A DNA stretch of 64,000 nt from an uncultured Latescibacterota bacterium. Its GTDB lineage: Bacteria > Latescibacterota > UBA2968 > UBA8231. Both the position numbers and the translations under genes were made by a program. The DNA lies in the NCBI GenBank assembly GCA_958295495.1, contig OY282352.1, positions 3,224,548 through 3,288,547 on the forward strand, written 5' to 3'. The notes under the pieces are model-generated. The model worked only from the letters and a program-made list of their open reading frames with translations, did not search any database and was not told where the DNA came from. Of this stretch, positions 24,472 to 39,409 are shown one piece after another. How positions within the stretch are numbered: position 1 is the stretch's first letter; each line of letters starts with the position of its first letter.

Positions 24472-25335
24472 TCACTTCAGCTCCTCGCCCGGTGTCCACT
24501 GTATTGCTATCGGCTCGGCCTCGCCATCGTACGCGATTTGGAGCGGTTCCATCAGAGCTTGGAGCTTTGCAGACGCTGAGGCCGCATCGCTGGTATTGGC
24601 TTCTGCCAGAGCAACTGTGGCCTGCGTGCGCTCGGGTAAGGCGACGAAGTCTGGATAGTACCACATTGTCAGCACTGTCCTCTGCCGATCGGTCTGGTTG
24701 GCATGTGAAGCGTGCAACAGGCTGCCGTACCCCATCACGAGATCGCCGGCTTGGACGGGAACATCGATCTCTTCCTCTACCCGTGAAAACCCCGGATCGT
24801 CGGGATTGGCAAATGTTCTGAGTTCGTCTGTATGGTTCGGTGCAATCCTGTCGTGTAGTACATGGCGCTTTAGATGCGACTTGGGAATCACGCGCAAACA
24901 CCCATTTTGCGGCGTTGTATCGGTGAGGTAATACATCAAAAAGCATTGGATGGGCTGCGTCGTATAGCTGATCGGATCGTCCCAAAAACGACCGTCTTCA
25001 TGCCAGAACAGGGGTGGGCTGTGTGGCGGTTTGCTGATGATGCGTCCGTGGCCAAACTTTGGGTCGTCGAACCCGAGCTGTTGCAGCGCTGTGAGCACGC
25101 CGGGGTGGGCGATGAGTTCGGCCATTACCGGATGCTGATAGGCCATGGCCCAATCAATCAGCACCATACTCCCGGTCGTGCGCTGTCTCTCAAAATGCGC
25201 TGGTTCCTGTCTGGCGAGCACATCATCGCTGAAGTGCCGTAAGCGATCCAACAGGAGGGAATCGAGAATGTTTTCAAATATATAAAACCCGTCGCGGGCA
25301 AACTGTTCTCGCTTTTTATTCGATCCATTTTCCAC
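24472..25335 (-). CDS. Phytanoyl-CoA dioxygenase (PhyH) family Fe(II)/2-oxoglutarate oxygenase
   Basis: 287 aa. It has an N-terminal FARDGFYIFENIL block, the HxD motif in FWHEDG, and a distal His in GSLLHASHAN. Confidence 0.8.
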   Translation of the reverse strand: MENGSNKKREQFARDGFYIFENILDSLLLDRLRHFSDDVLARQEPAHFERQRTTGSMVLIDWAMAYQHPVMAELIAHPGVLTALQQLGFDDPKFGHGRIISKPPHSPPLFWHEDGRFWDDPISYTTQPIQCFLMYYLTDTTPQNGCLRVIPKSHLKRHVLHDRIAPNHTDELRTFANPDDPGFSRVEEEIDVPVQAGDLVMGYGSLLHASHANQTDRQRTVLTMWYYPDFVALPERTQATVALAEANTSDAASASAKLQALMEPLQIAYDGEAEPIAIQWTPGEELK

Positions 25336-28312: not shown

Positions 28313-28714
28313 TTGGGCATCTTTCGCGTTCCCGCCAAAGTGAGAAACTGGCAGAATCGGTTCCTACCGCCGGGGAAACAGGGGCGAGAAGTCTCCTGTG
28401 ACATGCTGGTGGATTCCGGTGCCGCTGAATTGGCACTTCCCGCTGAACTCATGGACCCTCTCAAGCTCGAAGAGCTGGGGACCATGCGCGTGGTTACCGC
28501 CGATGGCGGCCAGCGCGAATGCCGCGTCTTAGGCATGGTCGAGCTCGAGGTTCAGGGACGAGTATGTCAGGTCAGAGCCCTTGAATTGCCTCGTGGCACC
28601 CAACCGCTGCTGGGGGCCGTTCCGCTCGAAGAAATGGACTGGCATATCGATCCTTTAGGGCAAAAACTGGTCCCCAATCCCCTTTCCCCCGACCGGCCAC
28701 TGCTGCATCTATGA
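28313..28714 (+). CDS. Retropepsin-like (clan AA) aspartic protease, single-domain
   Basis: 133 aa with a TTG start and GGAGGA upstream. The active-site motif is MLVDSGAAELALP (D-S-G-A). Confidence 0.7.
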   Translation: MGIFRVPAKVRNWQNRFLPPGKQGREVSCDMLVDSGAAELALPAELMDPLKLEELGTMRVVTADGGQRECRVLGMVELEVQGRVCQVRALELPRGTQPLLGAVPLEEMDWHIDPLGQKLVPNPLSPDRPLLHL

Positions 28715-29579: not shown

Positions 29580-31628
29580 ATGCCGGCGACCGATTCTACC
29601 ACACCTGAGCCGGGCAGGGTCGGCCGGGGTCTGCTGCCGGCGGCCTTTCGCTCGCGGCTGGACCTAAAGCCGCCCGACCCGGAGTCTGCCGTCGAAGAGG
29701 CCGGCTCGGCCTTTACGCTCCGGGCCTTTGCTCTGGGCACCTTTTTGGCTGCCTTCATCGGCGGCGGCATAGCCTATAGCACCCTGTACCTGCAAGGCTC
29801 CTACATGGCCTTGGGCTTCAGCACGGTGGGGGCGGTTTGCCTGCTGTCCCTGCTGACGGGCTTGGTCAATCCCCTGCTCAAGTTGGGAGGGACGCAGGGT
29901 TTGCGCCGGGGCGAATTGCTGCTGGTATATATAATGATGGTGATGGCCTCGCCCATCCCCATCGTTTTTACCTCGCGGATCATCAGCCAGCTCGCCTCCC
30001 CCTTTTACTTTGCCACGCCCGAAAACGATTGGCAGGGCCTCATCCATCCCCACATCCCCCACTGGATGATGCCGCGCCAGCTTGGCGACGCCCAGTTTTT
30101 CTTTGAGGGAATGGGGGCCGCCTACGCGGTGCCGTGGAAGGCTTGGCTGCTGGCGCTGGCGGCTTGGCAGCCCTTTATCTGGTCCCTCTTCCTAATGATG
30201 ATCGCCAGCATGGTCGTGCTGCGGCGGCAGTGGATCGACAACGAGCGCCTCGTCTATCCGCTGGTGCAAGTGCCGCTGGCCATGACCGCAATGGGGGCGG
30301 CCAACGAGCGCTGGCCGCCCTTTTTTAAGAATCGGGGGATGTGGATCGGCTTTGCCCTCGCCGCTACTTGGAGCACGCTACACGGCCTGTACGCCTATTT
30401 CCCGGAAGGAGTGCAATTCGCCCACGGCGTTGATCTGTTCCACCAAGAACTGTCGATCATGCGCGGCACCTCTAAGCTGTATATCATCTTCCGCTTCCAC
30501 ATCCTCGGTTTTTTTTACTTCCTCAAGACCGAAGTCGCGCTTAGCCTGTGGGTTTTCAATCTGTTGGCCAATATCTTGCGCGGTGCTTTCGCCATCCTCG
30601 GCGTGGGCAATACGCCCAGCTTGGGCAGTGGGCACGGCATCGGGCATACGCTTCAGGTCTATCACGCTATGGGCGCGATGGTGGTCCTCTTCCTCGGTGG
30701 CTTGTGGGCCGCCCGCCGACATCTGGCCGCGGTCTGGCGCAAAGCGTGGTCCGGCGATCCGGCCATTGATGACGCCCAAGAAATACTGTCGTACCGGGCG
30801 GCGGTGGCCATCCTCGTCTTAGGCACGGCGATCCTGATCGGCTGGCTGTGGCTGGCTGGATTGCCGTTGTGGGCCGGCACAGCTGTGCTCTTGCTGGCCG
30901 CTGCCCTCTTTGTCGCCTTCACCCGGATAGTGGCTGAAGGCGGTTTGTCCGACGGTGCTCCGCCCGTGGTGCCGGCCGGCATCCTCATCTCCGCGGTAGG
31001 CTCGTCAGCACTGGGGGCCCCGGGCTTGGTCTTGCTGGCTGGCACCTATATCTGGACGGCCAATGTCCGCAGCTTTGTCATGGCCTCCTGCGCCAACAGC
31101 CTGAAACTGAGCGAGGGCTTGGGCCGGGGGCGACGGCCTTTGTTCTGGGCCATGGTCGTGGCCATAGCCGTGGCGCTAATGACTTCGACTTGGATGATCT
31201 TGGAACTGAGTTACGAGCACGGCAACCTCAATCTGCGGGGCACGGTTAGCCGCGAAGCCCCCTACCGCTATGTCGAGAGTTTGCTGCGCTACCCGAGCGA
31301 GCCGCATCTGTGGGGCTGGATCAACATGGGCTTGGGCGCGGCCATCATGCTGGGCTTGACCGTGGCCCGGTGGCACTACGCTTGGTGGCCTCTACACCCT
31401 CTGGGCTATCCCATTGGGCCGACTTGGATTATGGACCACCTGTGGTTCAATATGTTTTTGGCTTGGTCGATCAAAGTTCTAGTGCTCAAGTACGGCGGTG
31501 CCGACCGCTACCGCCAGACTAGGCCGTTTTTTATGGGGCTGATCTTGGGGCAACTGCTGCCGGGCGGCATCTTCCTCGTCATCGACCATTGTACCGGCAC
31601 GGTCGGCAATGTGATTTTCTGGGGGTGA
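29580..31628 (+). CDS. Large polytopic inner-membrane protein of unknown function (>=12 predicted TM segments)
   Basis: 682 aa, with hydrophobic helices throughout and a short soluble N-terminus. No transporter signature that I recognise. Confidence 0.6.
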   Translation: MPATDSTTPEPGRVGRGLLPAAFRSRLDLKPPDPESAVEEAGSAFTLRAFALGTFLAAFIGGGIAYSTLYLQGSYMALGFSTVGAVCLLSLLTGLVNPLLKLGGTQGLRRGELLLVYIMMVMASPIPIVFTSRIISQLASPFYFATPENDWQGLIHPHIPHWMMPRQLGDAQFFFEGMGAAYAVPWKAWLLALAAWQPFIWSLFLMMIASMVVLRRQWIDNERLVYPLVQVPLAMTAMGAANERWPPFFKNRGMWIGFALAATWSTLHGLYAYFPEGVQFAHGVDLFHQELSIMRGTSKLYIIFRFHILGFFYFLKTEVALSLWVFNLLANILRGAFAILGVGNTPSLGSGHGIGHTLQVYHAMGAMVVLFLGGLWAARRHLAAVWRKAWSGDPAIDDAQEILSYRAAVAILVLGTAILIGWLWLAGLPLWAGTAVLLLAAALFVAFTRIVAEGGLSDGAPPVVPAGILISAVGSSALGAPGLVLLAGTYIWTANVRSFVMASCANSLKLSEGLGRGRRPLFWAMVVAIAVALMTSTWMILELSYEHGNLNLRGTVSREAPYRYVESLLRYPSEPHLWGWINMGLGAAIMLGLTVARWHYAWWPLHPLGYPIGPTWIMDHLWFNMFLAWSIKVLVLKYGGADRYRQTRPFFMGLILGQLLPGGIFLVIDHCTGTVGNVIFWG

Positions 31629-31688
31629 ATCGTAGTGGTGTTTCAAACACGACGTATTTAGACGTTTATGAGATAACTTCTAACCACT

Positions 31689-34600
31689 ATGAATAACTTG
31701 GGATGGCTATATCTGGCCTTCTGGTTGGGGCTGCTGCAAAGGCCCTGCTATGGGGAGGTGGCTGCTTTGCGCGCCACCATCGAAGCCCTAAGTGCCGTTG
31801 AATCGCGCTTGGCTGGCTATCCGGGTGCCGAAGCGGGTGCGGCGTTGGTGGAGCGGGAACTGGTCGCGGCTGGCGTCGAAGCGGTGCGGCGCGACTCGTT
31901 TGCCGTGGTGGTGCCCGTAGATCGCGGCGGGCACCTGCGCTTGGAGCACAGCGGGGAACAGTTCCCGCTGTGGGGCCTGTGGCCCAATCTAGCGCGGACG
32001 GTCACGCTGCCGCCAGAAGGCCTGCGAGCGTCGATGATCTATGGCGGCCGGGGCGAGTGGCGCGATTTCGATGGCCGCGCCATGGACGGGCGCATTGTCT
32101 TGCTGGAATTCGACAGTTGGAACCACTGGCTGCGAGCCGCTTCGCTGGGTGCCCGGGCCGTGGTGTTTATCGCGCCCGAGCGGGCCAACCGCCACCAAGC
32201 CGACGCCAAGTACGCCCAAGTGCCGCTCGATATTCCCCGCTTCTGGATCGAGCGCGAAGCGGGCCTAATGCTGCGCCAGCGCCTGCGGGCCGGCGAGCTA
32301 GCGGTGCATTTGCAGGGCCGCATGGATTGGCAACGGCGGCCGGCGTGGAATATCTGGGGCGTGATCTCCGGCACCGCTCCCGAGCTGGCCGACGAGCGCG
32401 TCGCGATTGAGGCGTACTACGACGGCATTTCCGTGGTGCCGGGCCGGGCCCCTAGCGCCGAGACCGCCTGCGGCATGGCCGCCCTACTGGACCTCGCCCG
32501 CCACCTCGCGGCCCATCCGCCGGCGCGCACCACCATTCTAGTGGCGACCTCGGCCCATTTCCAAAACCGCCAAGGCATGGCCGACTTTCTCGCCCGCCAC
32601 GCTCGCCGCTTGGAGGAACCCCTCCACATAGACCTGTTCATCGGCCTCGATCTGTCGAGCCGCACCGATCAAGTCGGCATTTGGAACAATACCGCCAAGC
32701 CCGAATTGCGGCGCTTTTTCGCCCCATTCGGTCGCCGCTTCAGCCGCTACGCCAGCACCCTAGACTCGGCCGCAGTCGGCAGTCTGGTCAACGGCATCAC
32801 GCCCATCAAGGGCCTCGAATGGTCGGCGTACATGCCCGGCGGCCTAGCTGCCAACAGCCAACTCGCTCTTGCAGGCGGTCTGATTTCCTTGGGCTTGATC
32901 ACCGCAAACGACGCCCGCCTGCAAATCGATTCGCCGCTGGACCGACCAGCCGCTGTCAACTACGGCAATCTGGCGCGCCAAGTTGCCTTGATAAACGGCT
33001 TGGTGCAACAGGCCCTGAACGATCCGCAATTATTGGAGAAGCAAGAAGCCTTTGGGCCGGTGTTGCAGGATCGCTTGCGCGACTTGCGCCTCAAGGTGCG
33101 GACCTTTCCGCGCCGCTCGCAAACGCCGGACCGGCCGGTGGCCGACGCCGTGGCCGTGGTGCGCTCGCAACGGGCGACCGCTGGCAAAGCCGTCAAAGGG
33201 GTGCGCACGGCCCAAGTCCATCTGAGCGACGACGAGGGCGAGTTGCTCATAATTGGGCTGCCACAAGCCCAATACCGCACCAGCGTTTACGTCTTGGACC
33301 CGCACAGCGGAGCCATTACCTACGCCGCCGATCTGAGCAAAAGGGCGCAAGGCTTCCACGGGGCACCGCTGCTCGACGGTTCCATCCCAAGCACCGTCCA
33401 GTGGGCACTCACCGAACAATCGGTGGTGGTGTTCCCCTGCCTGAGCCGCCCTTTTTACGGCCTAATCAGTCCGCGCTCGCTCAATTTCTTGGGCGGCATC
33501 TCCCTGCTCAATCGCTACGACACCACCCCGCGCCAATTCGGCTATGCGCTGGGCAGCGGCCTCGACGAAGCGGCCGGGGTGGTATTCGGGCCGCCGGACG
33601 ACGAGCCGCAAAACCGCATCAAAATACTGGCGGGCCGACAACTGCTGCTGCTCAACAACGGCATCCCCGGCAGCCGCCCCAACGGCGAGGGCTTTTCCCT
33701 CGCCGAGGATCGGCTGGTGCCGACGCTGTTGCAGGCCGCCTCGGATATGTGGCGTCTCGACGAGGAGCGGCTGCAGACCATGCGCGACCACGCCATTGAA
33801 AACCAGTATTTGCAGCGCCTGCACCAGCGCACCGCCCAAGTCCTCGAAGCCGCCGAAGAGGCCGCCCGCCAAAAAGAATGGAGCCGCTACGTGGCTCATC
33901 TGCGGGTGGCGCTGGGGCTGGAAAACGAGGTCTATCCCCAAGCTATGGCGACCTTAAACGATGTCATAAAGGGCATGGTATTCTTTTTGGCGCTGCTCAT
34001 TCCCGCGGCCTTTTTGGGCGAGCGCTTGCTGTTGGGAGCAGCGCAGATCACGCGGCAATTAGCTGGTTTTGGCGCGTTATTGGCCTTGGTCTGGCTCGCG
34101 GTCTCTCAAGTGCATCCCGCCTTTGCCATCGCCCATCCGCTGGTCATTCTGCTGGCCTTTGCCATCATGGCGATGGCTGGTTTTGTCCTCGTTCTCATCG
34201 GCAGCCGCTTCAACAGTTTTATGAAGGAGCGAGGCGACCAGATCCACCATGTTGAGATGCGGCGTTTCAGCGTCGCCCATGCCGCGTTCATGCTGGGCAT
34301 ATCCAACATGCGGCGGCGCAAACTGCGCACCGGCCTGACCTTGACGACCTTGGTCCTGCTGACGTTTACAGTGCTCTCCTTTGCCTCGTACGAGAGCCGG
34401 GCGCACTTTATCTCGCTGCCCCTTGAGCACGAGGGTGGGTACGAGGGCATCTTGGTCCGCAACCGGGCTTGGAGTCCCTTGGGTCAGCCCATGCTGGATT
34501 ACATTCACTCCCACTTTTCCGCAGTCGGCCCGCTGAGCCCGCGCAACTGGTTCATTTTGCAAGAGGACAAAAAGACCTACCTCGAAGCGGCGGCCGGCCG

Positions 34601-36047
34601 GCAATTGGTAAGGACCTACGGCTTGCTCGGACTGAGCACCGAGGAAACTGGCATCACCGGCGTTGATCAAGCCCTGACCGCCGGGCGTTTTTTCACTGCC
34701 GCGACCGAGGCCAGTTGTCTGCTACCCTTGCCGATGGCCGAAGCCTTGGGCTTGGATGCCGGCGACTTGGGACGCGCGCAAGTGCAGGTGATGGGCAAAG
34801 AACTGACCGCGATAGGCTTGTTCGATCCAGAGACCTTTAACGGCATCCGCGACCTAGACGGCGGCCCGCTGACGCCCGTTGACTTTGAGCTGTCCCAAAC
34901 CGCCGGCAGTACCTTTCAGATCAACCAGAGCACGGCCACCACCGCCACCGCCTCCCAGTACCGCCCCTACGTGCATGTACTGCCGGACAACGTGCTCATT
35001 GCGCCCTATGAGATCGTCCGCCAAATGGGGGGGCGGTTGCGCTCGGTGGCCGTAGCCTTTGACCGCGAGCGCTTGGACGCCGGGGCGGCTCAAACGTTGC
35101 TGGAGGATTTTCTGCTGCGGGTGGCCGTCAGCCTGTTCGTCGGGTTGCGGCAAGACGCCGCCGCGACCATCGACGTGTGGGCCTATTCGTCGATTGGGGC
35201 GACGGCGATAAAGGGCCTGGGGATGCTGATCGTTCCCATGCTCATCGCCGCCTTCATCGTCCTCAATACCATGCTGGGAACGGTGTACGAGCGCCTCAAG
35301 GACATTGGCATCTACGCGGCCGTAGGGCTGGCTCCGTCCCACATCGCCCTGCTGTTTATCGCCGAAGCTTGTGCCTATGCGGTCTTGGGCATTACGCTGG
35401 GGTACTTGGGGGGCCAAGGGACGGGCTTGGTGTTGAACCACTTGGATATGCTGGGTGGACTCAATTTGAACTATTCGTCCTTGGCGGCTGTATTTTCGGC
35501 GCTCATCGTCATGGGCGTGGTCTTGCTATCCACGGTGTACCCGGCCCGGGTGGCTGCCCGCACGGCTGTTCCCGATCTGGCGCGGCGCTGGCAGCCCGAG
35601 CCGCCGGTGGGTGCCGAGTGGGAATTCCGCTTCCCCTTCTTGGTGTCGGCGGCCGAGGCCAAGGGCCTGTGCGGCTTTTTGTTGGATTACCTAGGGTCCT
35701 ACGGCGAGGCTTCGATTGGCTCGTTTTACACCGAGGGCACTCTGCTCCAGTCCTTTGCCACGCCCCAAGGCACGGCCTACGCCCTCGAAGCCCGGGTGTG
35801 GCTGGCACCGCTCGATTTGGGCGTGAGCCAGCACGCCGTACTGTGCGTCCGCCCCGAGGACCAAGCCGATATTTACGGCCTAGTGTTCTATCTGCGCTGC
35901 CTCAGCGGCGACAACGATTCGTGGCGCCGGGCCAATCGCAGCTTTTTGCAGGCGATCCGCAAAGAGCTGCTGATCTGGAATACGCTCAAGACAGCGGAGC
36001 GGAGCGCGTTTCGGCAGCGGGCGGAGGAACAACTTCAGCGGCCATAA
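31689..36047 (+). CDS. Giant membrane protein: signal peptide + PA/M28-peptidase-like ectodomain + long linker + FtsX/MacB-type permease module + C-terminal cytoplasmic domain
   Basis: 1452 aa. The N-terminal third resembles PA-domain M28 peptidases (RIVLLEFD...GARAVVFI...NIWGVISG...AALLDLARHL). The C-terminal part has the FtsX hallmarks RRRKLRTGLTLTTLVLLTFTVLSFAS, a ~250-aa loop, then LIAAFIVLNTMLGTVYERLKDIGIYAAVGLAPSHIALLFIAEA. Confidence 0.7.
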   Translation: MNNLGWLYLAFWLGLLQRPCYGEVAALRATIEALSAVESRLAGYPGAEAGAALVERELVAAGVEAVRRDSFAVVVPVDRGGHLRLEHSGEQFPLWGLWPNLARTVTLPPEGLRASMIYGGRGEWRDFDGRAMDGRIVLLEFDSWNHWLRAASLGARAVVFIAPERANRHQADAKYAQVPLDIPRFWIEREAGLMLRQRLRAGELAVHLQGRMDWQRRPAWNIWGVISGTAPELADERVAIEAYYDGISVVPGRAPSAETACGMAALLDLARHLAAHPPARTTILVATSAHFQNRQGMADFLARHARRLEEPLHIDLFIGLDLSSRTDQVGIWNNTAKPELRRFFAPFGRRFSRYASTLDSAAVGSLVNGITPIKGLEWSAYMPGGLAANSQLALAGGLISLGLITANDARLQIDSPLDRPAAVNYGNLARQVALINGLVQQALNDPQLLEKQEAFGPVLQDRLRDLRLKVRTFPRRSQTPDRPVADAVAVVRSQRATAGKAVKGVRTAQVHLSDDEGELLIIGLPQAQYRTSVYVLDPHSGAITYAADLSKRAQGFHGAPLLDGSIPSTVQWALTEQSVVVFPCLSRPFYGLISPRSLNFLGGISLLNRYDTTPRQFGYALGSGLDEAAGVVFGPPDDEPQNRIKILAGRQLLLLNNGIPGSRPNGEGFSLAEDRLVPTLLQAASDMWRLDEERLQTMRDHAIENQYLQRLHQRTAQVLEAAEEAARQKEWSRYVAHLRVALGLENEVYPQAMATLNDVIKGMVFFLALLIPAAFLGERLLLGAAQITRQLAGFGALLALVWLAVSQVHPAFAIAHPLVILLAFAIMAMAGFVLVLIGSRFNSFMKERGDQIHHVEMRRFSVAHAAFMLGISNMRRRKLRTGLTLTTLVLLTFTVLSFASYESRAHFISLPLEHEGGYEGILVRNRAWSPLGQPMLDYIHSHFSAVGPLSPRNWFILQEDKKTYLEAAAGRQLVRTYGLLGLSTEETGITGVDQALTAGRFFTAATEASCLLPLPMAEALGLDAGDLGRAQVQVMGKELTAIGLFDPETFNGIRDLDGGPLTPVDFELSQTAGSTFQINQSTATTATASQYRPYVHVLPDNVLIAPYEIVRQMGGRLRSVAVAFDRERLDAGAAQTLLEDFLLRVAVSLFVGLRQDAAATIDVWAYSSIGATAIKGLGMLIVPMLIAAFIVLNTMLGTVYERLKDIGIYAAVGLAPSHIALLFIAEACAYAVLGITLGYLGGQGTGLVLNHLDMLGGLNLNYSSLAAVFSALIVMGVVLLSTVYPARVAARTAVPDLARRWQPEPPVGAEWEFRFPFLVSAAEAKGLCGFLLDYLGSYGEASIGSFYTEGTLLQSFATPQGTAYALEARVWLAPLDLGVSQHAVLCVRPEDQADIYGLVFYLRCLSGDNDSWRRANRSFLQAIRKELLIWNTLKTAERSAFRQRAEEQLQRP

Positions 36048-36053
36048 ACCGGC

Positions 36054-36438
36054 GTAGCCCTTTCTCGCGCAACGGAATTGCACAGACGGCGAAAAAGGTT
36101 TGTGGAGCGGTTCGCCCGCCACCGACCCTCAACGACGGGGTGGTCGCGCACTTGCAGGCGTATTCTTGGCCGGGGAATGTGCGCGATGGAGCACCTGATC
36201 CAGCAGAGGGTCTTGTTGTGCGAGGGGGGCGTGATGCGGGTAGCGGATGTGCCGTTCCTTTCTGAAGACGAGGAGGGGCCGAGATCAGGGATGAGAAACA
36301 GCAAATCGTCGAGGCACTCCAAGCCACCGAGGGACGGATTTATGGTGAGCGGGGTGCGCGTTGTTGGGCATGAACCCAGAGCGGCTGCGTTCCCGCATGC
36401 GCGTGTATGGGTTGCAGCGACCTAAGCAACCGTCTTAA
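36054..36438 (+). pseudogene. 3' remnant of a sigma-54-dependent transcriptional activator (end of AAA+ domain + Fis-type HTH), truncated and frameshifted
   Basis: Three successive frames read ...TLNDGVVAHLQAYSWPGNVR / EHLIQQRVLLCEGGVMRVADV...EDEEGP / EIRDEKQQIVEALQATEGRIYGERGAARLLGMNPERLRSRMRVYGLQRPKQPS*. The WPGNVRE(L)E and HTH signatures are present. There is no N-terminal or Walker region. Confidence 0.75.
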
Positions 36439-36467
36439 CGGGGAAAGGGAGCCCTGCGCCGTGGATG

Positions 36468-36534
36468 AAAAATCGTATTTAATACGAAAAAAATCGTATA
36501 AAATCGTATAAAATCGTATTTAATACGAAAAAAA
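36468..36534. promoter_or_regulatory. Operator/UAS-like repeat array: two 15-bp perfect palindromes plus two direct half-sites
   Basis: TCGTATTTAATACGA occurs at 36473-36487 and 36514-36528 (41 bp apart), each flanked by A-runs. ATCGTATAAA is repeated directly at 36493-36502 and 36503-36512. The array lies ~135-190 bp upstream of the sigma-54 promoter. Confidence 0.6.
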
Positions 36535-36613
36535 TGTTATGTTCCATTGAACCCATAGCAAATGCAACGTCTGTAAAAAGAAAATTACACTTTTATAACT
36601 CATATATTTTTCA

Positions 36614-36644
36614 ATCCTTTAGGGCAATCCTAAAGGATTTTTTT
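36614..36644 (+). terminator. Rho-independent terminator (or bend/hairpin element) between UAS and promoter
   Basis: ATCCTTTAGG (36614-36623) pairs with CCTAAAGGAT (36629-36638) around the loop GCAAT, followed by TTTTTT (36639-36644). Confidence 0.6.
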
Positions 36645-36661
36645 GTGCGTGTCCTGCTTTT

Positions 36662-36677
36662 TGGTACGCAATTTGCA
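36662..36677 (+). promoter_or_regulatory. Sigma-54 (-24/-12) promoter
   Basis: TGGTACG-caat-TTGCA matches the consensus TGGCACG-N4-TTGCW with one mismatch and exact spacing. GG is at 36663-36664 and GC at 36675-36676. Confidence 0.7.
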
Positions 36678-36816
36678 TATATAACCCGTAGAGCCGAGGC
36701 CGATGCGAAAGAAAGGAGGGGATACCAACTCGTCTTGGTCGTTGCTCAACTCTCACTTCCAGTACCGTAGCGACACTAGGCCGTGGGAGTACTGGGTTAC
36801 TCAGAAGAAAAGAACC

Positions 36817-37125
36817 ATGGAAAGCTTGCGGGAATTCTTCACGTCGTCGAGCGGGTTGGTGCCGGCTCGGCAGGGTCTGGGTCTGGGGTGGGTCATCAGC
36901 GCCCTCACGGGGATCACCGTCCTGCTCGGGGCCAAGGAAGCCGAAGCCGACAATGATTGCGGCGTATCCCCTTGGATAAGGGATCTTGGGTACAGCGCAG
37001 CTTGCGACGAAGCCACGAACGGGGCCAGGTCTTACAGGTGTCAGAGGTGTCAGAGGTGTCAGGATTGTCATATATCCCCGGACTGCGAATCGGTAGTATG
37101 CGGTGCCCCCTACTGTTGCGCATGA
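36817..37125 (+). CDS. Small secreted cysteine-rich protein (10 Cys in the ~58-aa predicted mature part)
   Basis: MESLREFFTSSSGLVPARQGLGLGWVISALTGITVLLGAKEAEA is signal-like. The remainder is DNDCGVSPWIRDLGYSAACDEATNGARSYRCQRCQRCQDCHISPDCESVVCGAPYCCA. It lies between the sigma-54 promoter and a terminator. An alternative in-frame start is ATG 36703. Confidence 0.5.
   Translation: MESLREFFTSSSGLVPARQGLGLGWVISALTGITVLLGAKEAEADNDCGVSPWIRDLGYSAACDEATNGARSYRCQRCQRCQDCHISPDCESVVCGAPYCCA
37036..37062 (+). repeat. Perfect 9-bp x3 tandem repeat inside the Cys-rich ORF
   Basis: AGGTGTCAG x3 encodes the (R)CQRCQRCQ stretch. Confidence 0.9.
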
Positions 37126-37179
37126 ATATCTGAGCCTACCTTAGCTACTGTCGGGCCGTTTTTCTTGCTAAGGTGTAAG

Positions 37180-37216
37180 GGGCCGGCTTAATCGTAGCGA
37201 TTGAGTCGGCCCTTTT
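37180..37216 (+). terminator. Rho-independent terminator after the Cys-rich ORF
   Basis: GGGCCGGCT (37180-37188) pairs with AGTCGGCCC (37204-37212, one G-U pair), followed by TTTT (37213-37216). Confidence 0.55.
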
Positions 37217-37279
37217 CCTCATTTCACGGAGAGTACGCTGTTGGTCAGCCTCTTACAGTTGGAAAGGAGTGGTGCTATT

Positions 37280-39409
37280 ATGCTGAAAGTTGCTATTGTT
37301 GCCGGCGTTGTGCTATGGAGTAGCCTCGCCGAGGCGATCAAGTGGGATTTCGATGACGGGACGACGCAAGGGTGGACCCCCAAAGAAGCTCTTGTACGGG
37401 GGGGGACGCGTGAATTTAACCAGTTTCCAGCGATGGTTGACAACGGCGTGTGGCGGATCCGGGTCGATCCGGCCGTCACCAAGAGTTTGTACACCTCCCA
37501 GGCGGGCGTCGAAGTGGTTTCTCCGCCTATCGGGTACGATTCGAGCTTGTTCGACCACGTCCGCGTCCGGCTCCGCACCGTCCATGACCACCCCACAGAG
37601 GGTAGTTTTTGGATCACGTGGGACAACTCTTCAGGTTTAGGAGATTTCTTTACCCACTCAGTACGAGGACAAACAGTCTATACCACCGAGTGGCAGGAAG
37701 TGGAGTTCCCGTTGGCGGGTCGCGACGGCTGGGAGGGCCTGTTGAGAAATGTTCAGCTCGGTTTTGTACTGGCTTTTGATTTGGATACCGAGGTTATCCA
37801 GTCGTTTGAGATCGACTGGATTGAGTTGACCGGCGTGGGCGAGCTTTTAGAGGGGGAACTGCCGCCGCCGCCGGTAGAGTACTACTTCCGCTTTGTGGGG
37901 GCCGGTCTTTTCGCCCCGCCGGTTTTCTATCCGATTGCCCCGGGCATCGGGGAAGCCCCTTTTGGAGGGGGAGGGTATCTAGGGGAGGTCAAGGGCAACG
38001 TGTTGACGGACTTGGATGGCGATGGCGACTTAGACCTGTTCGCCCTGTGGGAAACGCAAACAGAGAATAAGTATGGGGCTCCTAAGACGAAAGCGGGCTG
38101 GCTGATGGCCGTCAATGACGGGCGCGGGGCCTTGGAACGGGGGCCTGTTATAGAAGAAGTAGAAGGAGCAGCTGAAGGTGGGGCAGTCTTAAAGGTGCTT
38201 GGTGCCGATTTGACGGGCGACGGTCAAGACGAAATCGCCCTATCGAGAAACAACCGGGAGCCCCAGACCGAAGTGTGGTCTATCGGGCCGGACCTCCAAG
38301 TTGAGGTGCTCGTGCAGATCGATAGACGGATCCATAGTGTGGCCGATTGGGATGGCGACGGCCGAGTCGAATTATTTGTCGGGGGGGGTATGTTTAGAGG
38401 CACTTTCGAGGAAATGATCGCCGGTACGGCGGAGGTTTATAGCACATTAGCGGTCTGGGAGGTAGCACAAGGGATGTGGACCTCCGAGGAGGTGGCGTAT
38501 TCCGAAGACTATGTGTCCACTCAGATCGGCGACTTTACCGGCGATGGAACCCTAGACGTGCTCTGGACACCGACGAGAAAGCTGGTGAACAGGTGGATTG
38601 TGGGGGCCTTGGGCGAGGAGCTTCCGAGCGGCGAGATATTTGAAGTCGATGAAGAGATGAAGCGACCGTTAGGGGTGGGCGACTTTGATGGCGATGGGCA
38701 GGTGGACTTCCTCACCGAGTTCACATCCGATCTAATCGAAGAGAGCAAGGGACTCGTCTTGCAGAGAAAGGGAGCCGGAGACCGCCTAGAAGCGGAGGTG
38801 CTATATGATGATCGGCTGTTGCGGCGCTCGCCGGTGGTGGTGCGCGACCTCAACGCCGATGGGATTGAGGACTGGGTGTTTATCGGCGGGGATCGCGTCT
38901 CGGGCTTTGGGGTGTTCGTCGAATGGGGTGGGGGAGTCAACCCTACTCAAGCAGGGGAGCGGCATCGGCTGGAGGGCAGTGGGCGATCCGTGCTCTGCGG
39001 GGATATGGATAGCGACGGCGATCTCGATTTGGTGGTGTTGGATCCGATCTTGGGCGGCGTGCATCTGCTCAAGAGTTCGCTGAGCGAGCAGCCGACCGCG
39101 GTGCAGACGCCAGCGGCAGCGCGACCAGTGCAACATCGGCTGGGCGACAGCTATCCCAATCCGTTCAATCCGGCGGTGGTGATCCCTCTTGAGTTGGCGA
39201 CGGACGCGGCCGGGGTGTCGCTGACGGTGTACGATGTGTTGGGTCGTCGGGTGCGGCAGGTGTGGGACGGGTCGCTGGAGGCGGGCAGGCATCGGTTTGT
39301 GTGGGATGGCCGCGACGACGCGAGCAAAGACGTGGCCGCTGGGGTGTATATCTATCAGGTCGAAATTGACGGACGGGTGGAAGCGAAAAAGACGACGAAG
39401 CTGCCGTGA
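37280..39409 (+). CDS. Secreted FG-GAP/VCBS-repeat protein with T9SS type-A (FlgD-Ig-like) C-terminal sorting domain
   Basis: ATG 37280 (AAGGAG upstream) gives signal peptide MLKVAIVAGVVLWSSLAEA. Repeated DxDGDGxxD motifs are present (DLDGDGDLD, DWDGDGRVE, DFDGDGQVD, DMDSDGDLD). The C-terminus SYPNPFNPAVVIPL...LTVYDVLGRRV...VWDGRDD...AAGVYIYQV is the type-A CTD. Confidence 0.8.
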   Translation: MLKVAIVAGVVLWSSLAEAIKWDFDDGTTQGWTPKEALVRGGTREFNQFPAMVDNGVWRIRVDPAVTKSLYTSQAGVEVVSPPIGYDSSLFDHVRVRLRTVHDHPTEGSFWITWDNSSGLGDFFTHSVRGQTVYTTEWQEVEFPLAGRDGWEGLLRNVQLGFVLAFDLDTEVIQSFEIDWIELTGVGELLEGELPPPPVEYYFRFVGAGLFAPPVFYPIAPGIGEAPFGGGGYLGEVKGNVLTDLDGDGDLDLFALWETQTENKYGAPKTKAGWLMAVNDGRGALERGPVIEEVEGAAEGGAVLKVLGADLTGDGQDEIALSRNNREPQTEVWSIGPDLQVEVLVQIDRRIHSVADWDGDGRVELFVGGGMFRGTFEEMIAGTAEVYSTLAVWEVAQGMWTSEEVAYSEDYVSTQIGDFTGDGTLDVLWTPTRKLVNRWIVGALGEELPSGEIFEVDEEMKRPLGVGDFDGDGQVDFLTEFTSDLIEESKGLVLQRKGAGDRLEAEVLYDDRLLRRSPVVVRDLNADGIEDWVFIGGDRVSGFGVFVEWGGGVNPTQAGERHRLEGSGRSVLCGDMDSDGDLDLVVLDPILGGVHLLKSSLSEQPTAVQTPAAARPVQHRLGDSYPNPFNPAVVIPLELATDAAGVSLTVYDVLGRRVRQVWDGSLEAGRHRFVWDGRDDASKDVAAGVYIYQVEIDGRVEAKKTTKLP

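Follow-up and report, generated by a model that had tools for sequence, protein, structure and literature searches.

A giant FtsX/MacB-type permease with a PA/M28-like ectodomain is conserved beside an OPT/YSL-like transporter homologue in Latescibacterota

ATP-binding cassette (ABC) systems of type VII, among them MacB, Lol, FtsEX, Bce and YbbAP, perform mechanical work in the cell envelope rather than moving substrates across the membrane, and every member newly understood so far has shown a different job. FtsEX systems, for example, control the EnvC-amidases, PcsB, RipC and CwlO. Members of the class such as MacB, LolCDE, FtsEX, YbbAP, YtrF and BceAB share an FtsX-type permease of four transmembrane (TM) helices, in which the periplasmic core domain follows TM1 and precedes TM2, and TM2 and TM3 are linked by a conserved segment that aligns with the coupling helix of MacB. 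Here we analyse a relative of these permeases that is encoded in a 64,000-nucleotide stretch of DNA (the window) from an uncultured Latescibacterota bacterium (GenBank assembly GCA_958295495.1, contig OY282352.1, positions 3,224,548 to 3,288,547). It is a 1452-residue protein, called the giant protein below, which joins a PA/M28-like ectodomain to a complete FtsX/MacB-type module and whose gene follows that of a 682-residue polytopic membrane protein. An original prediction made from the letters of the window had put forward the pair as a possible self-contained ATPase-less machine that it did not recognise as a described system. In agreement with the latter point, we found no description of DUF6785 and DUF6784, the two families to which the 682-residue protein belongs, or of this gene combination, in the searchable literature. 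What makes the locus most interesting is that a type VII ABC permease is conserved together with OPT-like transporters, and in some cases covalently joined to them, more than the missing ATPase that headed the original prediction. The two genes and their parts are as follows, in window coordinates.

29580..31628, + strand: gene for the 682-residue polytopic membrane protein, DUF6785 plus DUF6784, an OPT/YSL-superfamily-like transporter homologue (open reading frame, Pfam, AlphaFold2 fold match)
29715..31223, + strand: DUF6785 domain of the 682-residue protein, residues 46-548 (Pfam)
31317..31601, + strand: DUF6784 domain of the 682-residue protein, residues 580-674 (Pfam)
31689..36047, + strand: gene for the 1452-residue giant protein, with leader, PA/M28-like ectodomain, beta-rich and helical region, three TM helices, FtsX/MacB-type module and cytoplasmic tail
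31749..32684, + strand: PA/M28-like domain of the giant protein, residues ~21-332, with the non-canonical site Y244, D245, E258, H290, F291, D321 (profile matches to 2ek8 and 6hc6)
32685..33938, + strand: unassigned extracytoplasmic region between the M28-like domain and the TM block, residues 333-750, ~420 residues, beta-rich and then helical (low-confidence AlphaFold2 model)
33942..34214, + strand: extra block of three TM helices ahead of the FtsX module, residues 752-842 (hydropathy scan, helices in the AlphaFold2 model, many invariant residues)
34266..35573, + strand: complete FtsX/MacB-type permease module, residues 860-1295, comprising an amphipathic pre-TM1 stretch, TM1, a ~265-residue periplasmic loop, TM2, the segment VYERLKDIGIYAAVGL, TM3 and TM4
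35574..36047, + strand: conserved cytoplasmic tail of the giant protein, residues 1296-1452, a beta-alpha-beta4-alpha2 domain and not a P-loop ATPase (AlphaFold2 model, no Walker A motif)

The association of the two genes is conserved. Both open reading frames were confirmed where the original prediction had placed them, codirectional on the + strand and separated by a spacer of 60 bp. When one genome per species was scanned, 338 relatives came to light; the 80 best of them (nearly all Latescibacterota metagenome-assembled genomes [MAGs], some labelled Gemmatimonadota or Handelsmanbacteria) were taken together with four other loci to give 84 related loci, and these were annotated by a local hidden Markov model (HMM) scan. 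In 55 of the 84, a DUF6785 gene sits directly upstream of the giant gene, often with overlapping stop and start codons, and in 3 downstream of it; in a further 21 it is fused to the C terminus of the giant, yielding products of 2086-2137 residues in which the order, giant and then DUF6785, is the reverse of that in the window. The remaining loci are mostly truncated contigs. Because adjacency occurs in both orders and fusion recurs, the giant and the DUF6785 protein are functional partners and very probably physical ones in one membrane complex, as judged from gene order, and the suggestion that the polytopic neighbour is a partner of the permease is thereby strengthened. We know of no OPT protein that works with, or is fused to, an ABC-type permease. 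Where complete chromosomes were available, each genome carried two or three copies of the giant gene. The same collection of sequences bears on the concern, raised with the original prediction, that separate genes were joined into the 1452-codon reading frame by a chimeric assembly or a frameshift: full-length homologues numbered more than 300, at 46-93% identity, several of them on complete long-read chromosomes, and the same architecture recurs across several phyla, so an artefact has a negligible probability. At two loci (L054 and L056, 9992-16527) a giant::DUF6785 gene is present as two overlapping open reading frames in different frames, which points to a frameshift, whether real or an assembly error.

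In one Latescibacterota paralogous type, a third conserved gene lies directly downstream (39 loci, including L001:14401-17604). Its product is a polytopic protein of ~900-1090 residues with PDZ domains inserted in an extracytoplasmic loop, and it belongs to a family of ~650-residue membrane proteins (36-42% identity), called here the second partner, that also accompanies the giant protein in other lineages. This family has no Pfam model of its own; one of its members passes the Pfam OPT model (36.9 bits against a cut-off of 25.8). Profile-profile comparison of the second partner with DUF6785 gave no significant homology, whether the PDZ insert was included or not (E 0.18 and 0.022). At four loci (L025, L060, L039 and L040) the second partner is present and the DUF6785 gene is not adjacent.

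The giant protein carries, as judged from its sequence, a MacB/FtsX-type (type VII ABC) permease module, for which ATP-driven mechanotransmission would be the expected mode of action. The Pfam FtsX model (PF02687) scored 40.4 bits against a cut-off of 25.5 over residues 1180-1292, and the C-terminal part of a profile built from 35 homologues and searched against PDB sequences matched the chains of YtrF, MacB, LolC and LolF. Beyond an N-terminal hydrophobic leader, hydropathy analysis placed three TM helices at residues 752-842, another at 881-901, a loop of ~265 residues at 902-1167, three further helices at 1170-1290 and a tail of ~157 residues. The predicted layout of leader, PA/M28-like region, unassigned extracytoplasmic part, complete FtsX/MacB module and tail was therefore borne out, and the block ahead of the module, foreseen as three or four helices, has three. 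With an exported N terminus, the parity of the TM helices orients the FtsX module as in MacB. The HMM searches proposed with the original prediction had a mixed outcome: FtsX passed its cut-off and PA-domain aminopeptidases were matched by the family profile, but M28 fell below its cut-off (see below) and MacB_PCD, the domain expected for the FtsX-module loop, gave weak matches in homologues only. An AlphaFold2 model of residues 335-1452 was poor (predicted local distance difference test score [pLDDT] 54.7, predicted template-modelling score [pTM] 0.27), and we make no claim from it on domain packing or on the middle of the ectodomain; a fold search with this model returned nothing at E <= 0.001, its weak matches including a pneumococcal MacB-like permease. 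One homologue showed a weak CarboxypepD_reg match in the extracytoplasmic region.

The segment between TM2 and TM3 (VYERLKDIGIYAAVGL), which by alignment with MacB would be the coupling helix, deserves particular attention. Its residues E1201, R1202 and I1206 are invariant, and the motif VYER(F/K)REIGIY(S/T)SVGL is the most conserved stretch within each of the two clades, the ATPase-linked and the unlinked (mean conservation 0.92 and 0.91). The consensus sequences of the two clades, VYERFREIGIYSSVGL and VYERKREIGIYTSVGL, are 88% identical, and the pre-TM1 (its amphipathic stretch is so named by analogy with MacB) and post-TM4 segments are likewise equally conserved in the two clades. Set against the described type VII systems, the giant protein is distinguished by ~850 extra N-terminal residues that make up the PA/M28-like ectodomain and three TM helices, by its conserved alpha/beta tail of ~157 residues, by its obligate pairing with OPT-like polytopic proteins, to which it is in some cases fused, and, in Latescibacterota, by the lack of a linked ATPase.

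In many lineages outside this phylum the family looks different in the last respect. Residues 850-1452 (the FtsX module and tail), searched against 1.84 billion representative proteins, matched 1,143 clusters (50% identity) at E <= 1e-30; among the best 150 of these, nearly all span both module and tail and most are 1400-1800 residues long. Short members (~600-800 residues) were considered as minimal forms and rejected, since they look like truncated gene calls. With a second search, begun from a distant member, the family was seen to extend over Latescibacterota, Armatimonadota, Omnitrophica, Planctomycetota and Desulfobacterota, including Desulfospira joergensenii, whose operon encodes, in order, a small FtsX protein (227 residues), an ABC ATPase (248), a giant protein (1604), a DUF6785 protein (663), a membrane protein (653), proteins of 204 and 295 residues and a PqqD-like protein. 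Much the same operon is present in a Phycisphaerae MAG, and the gap between the ATPase and giant genes is 4 bp in D. joergensenii and 1 bp in the MAG. The operon ATPases score best against LolD, MacB, FtsE, DevA and YbbA models; a LolD/MacB-type ATPase together with a second FtsX subunit recalls the LolC/LolE heterodimer. A metagenome scan seeded from the Desulfospira-like clade yielded 80 loci, and the arrangement in them is given below, each count covering only those loci with enough flanking sequence.

L085:8480-20711, L087:5096-18325 and metagenome loci L092-L171: operon of five to eight genes, in the Desulfospira-like clade and the Phycisphaerae MAG
Directly upstream of the giant gene: ABC ATPase, 59/63 metagenome loci
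Upstream of the giant gene: small FtsX, 52/54 metagenome loci
Directly downstream of the giant gene: DUF6785, 56/59 metagenome loci
Downstream: second partner (~650 residues), 45/46 metagenome loci
Further downstream: 204-residue, 295-residue and PqqD-like genes, 21-22/35 metagenome loci

Representatives of the 204- and 295-residue accessory proteins had no Pfam or NCBIfam match, and neither their sequences nor their profiles matched the PDB. The small FtsX protein of the Phycisphaerae operon (L087:6397-9129) is not small: at 910 residues it has a biotin-lipoyl domain (36 bits) as well as HlyD-like matches, these very weak, and recalls a membrane-fusion adaptor fused to a permease. Two Armatimonadota loci (L086:7361-9927 and L088:4071-7930) have different, divergent neighbours, namely a conserved protein of ~605 residues and one of 170-190 residues, neither with Pfam matches, and no adjacent DUF6785, second partner or ATPase; L088 also has a 397-residue MacB_PCD-FtsX permease.

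In the window itself, a six-frame scan for Walker A and signature motifs and a jackhmmer search that started from genuine ABC ATPases of related loci found no ABC ATPase anywhere in the 64 kb, extending the predicted absence over at least 20 kb on either side. That homologues always sit next to an ATPase, which would speak against the original prediction, is largely the case in the wider family, with 59 of 63 loci of the Desulfospira-like clade, and in none of the 84 related loci. The other objection named there, a canonical MacAB or Lol context, was not borne out: in contrast to MacAB-TolC, Lol and FtsEX systems, no MacA/TolC, LolA/B or EnvC-type partner was observed. ATPases within 10 kb of a few related loci were considered as partners and rejected; they are of the MalK/UgpC importer type (L038 and L041) or SufC (L021), and are not conserved. 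A MacB_PCD-FtsX protein (395 residues) with a LolD-type ATPase at L054 and L056 was also set aside; it is 4.6 kb downstream, and opposite-strand genes lie in between. Overall, the absence of a linked ATPase in Latescibacterota looks like a lineage-specific feature of gene order and not proof of an ATP-free machine. The conserved TM2-TM3 segment suggests that an ATPase docking site has been kept, and the Latescibacterota ATPase is most likely encoded elsewhere in the genome; our survey covered the flanks of the loci. The idea of a self-contained ATPase-less machine is a minority reading for Latescibacterota, and for the wider family it is largely refuted.

The 682-residue neighbour, anonymous in the original prediction and correctly described there as a polytopic membrane protein, can now be placed. 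Pfam assigns it first to DUF6785 (E 1.3e-113, 380.6 bits) and then to DUF6784 (E 2.1e-31, 108.5 bits), both above their cut-offs. An AlphaFold2 model of moderate quality built from 31 sequences (pLDDT 64, pTM 0.70) had a single PDB fold match at E <= 0.001, barley Yellow Stripe 1 (HvYS1; 7wst_A, E 1.9e-6, probability 1.0), with template-modelling scores of 0.49/0.55 over 615 columns and a sequence identity of ~12%. When the YS1 structure was determined, no structural homologue of its fold was known, and HvYS1, the one solved structure with this fold, has been described as a proton-coupled elevator-type homodimer with large domain movements (PMC9691689). Consistent with the fold match, the Pfam OPT model (PF03169) gave sub-threshold matches in 2 of 31 DUF6785 proteins (best E 5e-6), and P0196, the one of these scanned singly, reached 23.1 bits against the cut-off of 25.8. 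The window protein itself had no Pfam OPT match, and a DUF6785 profile found no meaningful match among PDB sequences. Thus, it resembles the OPT/YSL family (PF03169; 7wst) in size and polytopic topology, and through the weak OPT matches of some relatives, but differs from it in its DUF6785 plus DUF6784 classification, in lacking an OPT score and in its low identity to YS1. We conclude from the model that it is a distant homologue of the OPT/YSL transporter superfamily, with a predicted transport activity. To our knowledge, no bacterial member of an OPT-like family has been characterised.

The ectodomain of the giant protein is likewise related to proteins of known function, in a modified form. 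Over residues ~21-310 the family profile picked up two aminopeptidases with a PA domain, 2ek8 from Aneurinibacillus (E 1.2e-11) and YwaD from Bacillus subtilis (6hc6; E 7e-9), with which the giant shares a PA insertion in an M28-like fold near the N terminus. Pfam M28 scored 18.2 bits on residues 221-332 against a cut-off of 21.3, which distant family members pass. When the residues are aligned with 2ek8 and YwaD, the first zinc His is replaced by Tyr244, the bridging Asp by Glu258 and the Glu-Glu pair (catalytic residue and ligand) by His290-Phe291; Asp321 corresponds to a zinc-ligand Asp that is kept, and the last His could not be aligned. These site residues are invariant or nearly so across the family. 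No family member examined conserves the canonical M28 set of zinc ligands (His, Asp, Glu, Asp, His) and catalytic Glu, and the same substitutions (EAYYDS, SGHF, LDLSS) are found in distant members that are ~40-45% identical over the C-terminal module, in a comparison guided by an aminopeptidase sequence. Since distant members share it, the change in the active site is, at the level of sequence, a family-wide re-wiring and not the decay of one lineage. It is thus unlikely that the domain acts as an ordinary aminopeptidase; it is either non-catalytic or suited to a different chemistry. The transferrin receptor and nicalin are non-catalytic M28-like proteins and have also not kept the canonical metal ligands, although their matches to the family profile were not significant (E 0.08-0.9). 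Apart from Tyr244, Glu258 and His290-Phe291, the giant's domain differs from PA-domain M28 aminopeptidases in being covalently joined to an FtsX permease. Of the predicted fusion between a hydrolase-like domain and a permease, the fusion stands; an active hydrolase is doubtful because the canonical M28 residues are missing.

At its other end, the giant protein finishes in a cytoplasmic tail that is the sole well-modelled part of the 335-1452 model (blocks with pLDDT mostly 64-87), with the order beta-alpha-beta4-alpha2. Weak fold matches of that model to START/Bet v 1 and PsbP/Mog1-like structures are assumed to fall on the tail. It contains no Walker A motif. It is also conserved in the ATPase-linked clade, and on these sequence grounds it is not a substitute for the ATPase.

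On balance, we lean towards the view that the pair is central to a widespread envelope system with a type VII (MacB/FtsX-type) ABC engine, whose ATPase would act in trans in Latescibacterota. The giant protein would pair with itself, or with a small FtsX protein in the manner of LolC and LolE, and a MacB-type ATPase would dock on the conserved TM2-TM3 segment. ATP-driven motion of the TM helices would then move the periplasmic core domain and the PA/M28-like ectodomain by mechanotransmission, and these movements might capture, hold or release a periplasmic substrate, which could be handed to, or taken from, the OPT-like transporter or transporters for membrane crossing. Our guess at a peptide-like substrate draws on the PA/M28 scaffold, on the OPT-like nature of the partners, on the PDZ domains inserted in one of them and on the PqqD-like gene of the full operon, since proteins of the PqqD type act as chaperones that bind peptides in pathways to peptide natural products. 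Several points weigh against this scheme. The nature of the substrate and the direction of transport, import or export, are guesses. Across the 84 related loci, which comprise four paralogous types, neither an ATPase gene nor a small FtsX gene adjoins the giant gene, and an adjacent ATPase is also absent from single Omnitrophica and Planctomycetes MAG loci and from the two Armatimonadota loci. The TM2-TM3 segment has a structural role as well, so that its conservation does not prove that an ATPase docks there; the model of the giant protein is too poor to inform on domain packing; and profile comparison did not establish that the two partner families are homologous.

A rather doubtful alternative, which is a refined form of the original prediction, is that the Latescibacterota system has become independent of an ATPase. 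The ATPase and the small FtsX protein would have been lost, and the FtsX module would serve as a homodimeric scaffold or be moved by the proton-driven elevator of its OPT-like partner, which would then supply the mechanical work in place of ATP hydrolysis. The contrast between 0 of 84 related loci with an adjacent ATPase or small FtsX gene and 59 of 63 with an ATPase in the other clade speaks for such a loss, as do the giant::DUF6785 fusions, found in 21 of 84 loci in the lineage and seen in none of the 80 ATPase-linked metagenome loci, and the large domain movements of HvYS1 as a proton-coupled elevator. Yet the family is ATPase-linked in other lineages, and the coupling-helix-aligned, pre-TM1 and post-TM4 segments match those of the linked clade in their degree of conservation. 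Unlinked FtsX-type permeases are, moreover, common in genome annotations of related phyla, and we know of no ATPase-independent member of the MacB/FtsX fold. In its more ambitious form, in which a MacB-fold module freed from ATP is powered by the proton-motive force through an OPT-type elevator to which it is fused or tightly bound, or acts as a periplasmic gate controlling a secondary transporter, the proposal seems unlikely to us; if true, the version powered by the proton-motive force would be the first such mechanotransmission device of the MacB fold.

The ectodomain lends itself to other explanations. It could be an atypical but active exopeptidase that trims extracellular peptides, the products of which the OPT-like protein imports, with the FtsX module as no more than an anchor. 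The PA/M28 scaffold, the OPT-like partners, the cytoplasmic M42 aminopeptidase gene that adjoins one paralogous type and the retention of D245, E258, H290 and D321 in the former active-site pocket are all compatible with a loose metabolic pairing of this kind. It is nevertheless improbable, for family-wide substitutions affect at least three of the five canonical zinc ligands as well as the catalytic Glu (Tyr for His, Glu or a kept Asp for Asp, His-Phe for Glu-Glu), and a mere anchor would need neither a complete, highly conserved FtsX module, a periplasmic core and a tail nor, elsewhere, an ATPase in the operon. Very improbable, in our judgement, is an FtsEX-like regulator of a covalently attached cell-wall hydrolase acting in envelope remodelling or division. 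The combination of an FtsX-fold module with a hydrolase-like ectodomain invites the comparison, the shared idea being that a MacB-fold module controls a hydrolase-like domain outside the cytoplasm. Unlike in FtsEX-hydrolase systems, however, that domain is part of the same polypeptide and lies N-terminal to the extra TM helices instead of being bound to the loop; it is M28/PA-like, and neither a peptidoglycan hydrolase nor a coiled-coil adaptor. Each genome has two or three paralogues, the neighbourhoods examined contain no genes for division or the cell wall, and the constant partners are transporter-like proteins.

The giant/DUF6785 family is large, is spread over several phyla and has no literature that we could find. 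Working out its function would assign DUF6785, DUF6784 and the ~650-residue partner family, and would show a use for a re-wired M28/PA domain. The system could serve to test whether an ABC-type mechanotransmitter and a secondary transporter act as one machine, and its Latescibacterota version, having no linked ATPase, is a natural test case for a MacB fold without an ATPase of its own.

Other features were noted around the pair and at related loci. Downstream of the giant gene, ~570 bp from position 36048 contain no convincing open reading frame and finish in a strong terminator-like hairpin, and the next gene starts at 37241; the region 36048-37240 has no Rfam match, and Rfam and tRNA scans of the whole window were both empty. 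The hairpin is as follows.

36613..36639, + strand: terminator-like hairpin, a 12-bp stem followed by a T run (consensus match only)

From its sequence, this hairpin is probably the end of the transcription unit. Other genes near the pair, all unrelated to it, encode a PQQ-dependent dehydrogenase, a PhyH-like dioxygenase, a molybdopterin oxidoreductase, a HAD hydrolase and an FG-GAP protein. The last of these (FG-GAP/FlgD_ig, 37241-39409) was considered as a part of the system and rejected, as close relatives have no counterpart of it at their syntenic loci; it may have been inserted locally. A PhyH-like dioxygenase gene (24472-25335, - strand, in the window; L004:7742-8629; L091:15797-16612) recurs near 14 loci of two paralogous types and in L091 directly adjoins a second DUF6785 gene, which may be coincidence, the genomes being rich in PhyH genes. 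On the 3' side of the three-gene version (L001:17650-24404, ~25 loci) there is a conserved block encoding DnaJ, YbjN/CesT-like, PspA/IM30, amine oxidase, spermine-synthase-like, DUF4178 and DUF350 proteins, which looks like a membrane-stress and polyamine cluster. Finally, two genes upstream of the pair in the window, a 133-residue open reading frame (28313-28714, + strand) encodes retropepsin-like aspartyl protease domains (gag-asp_proteas, Asp_protease_2).

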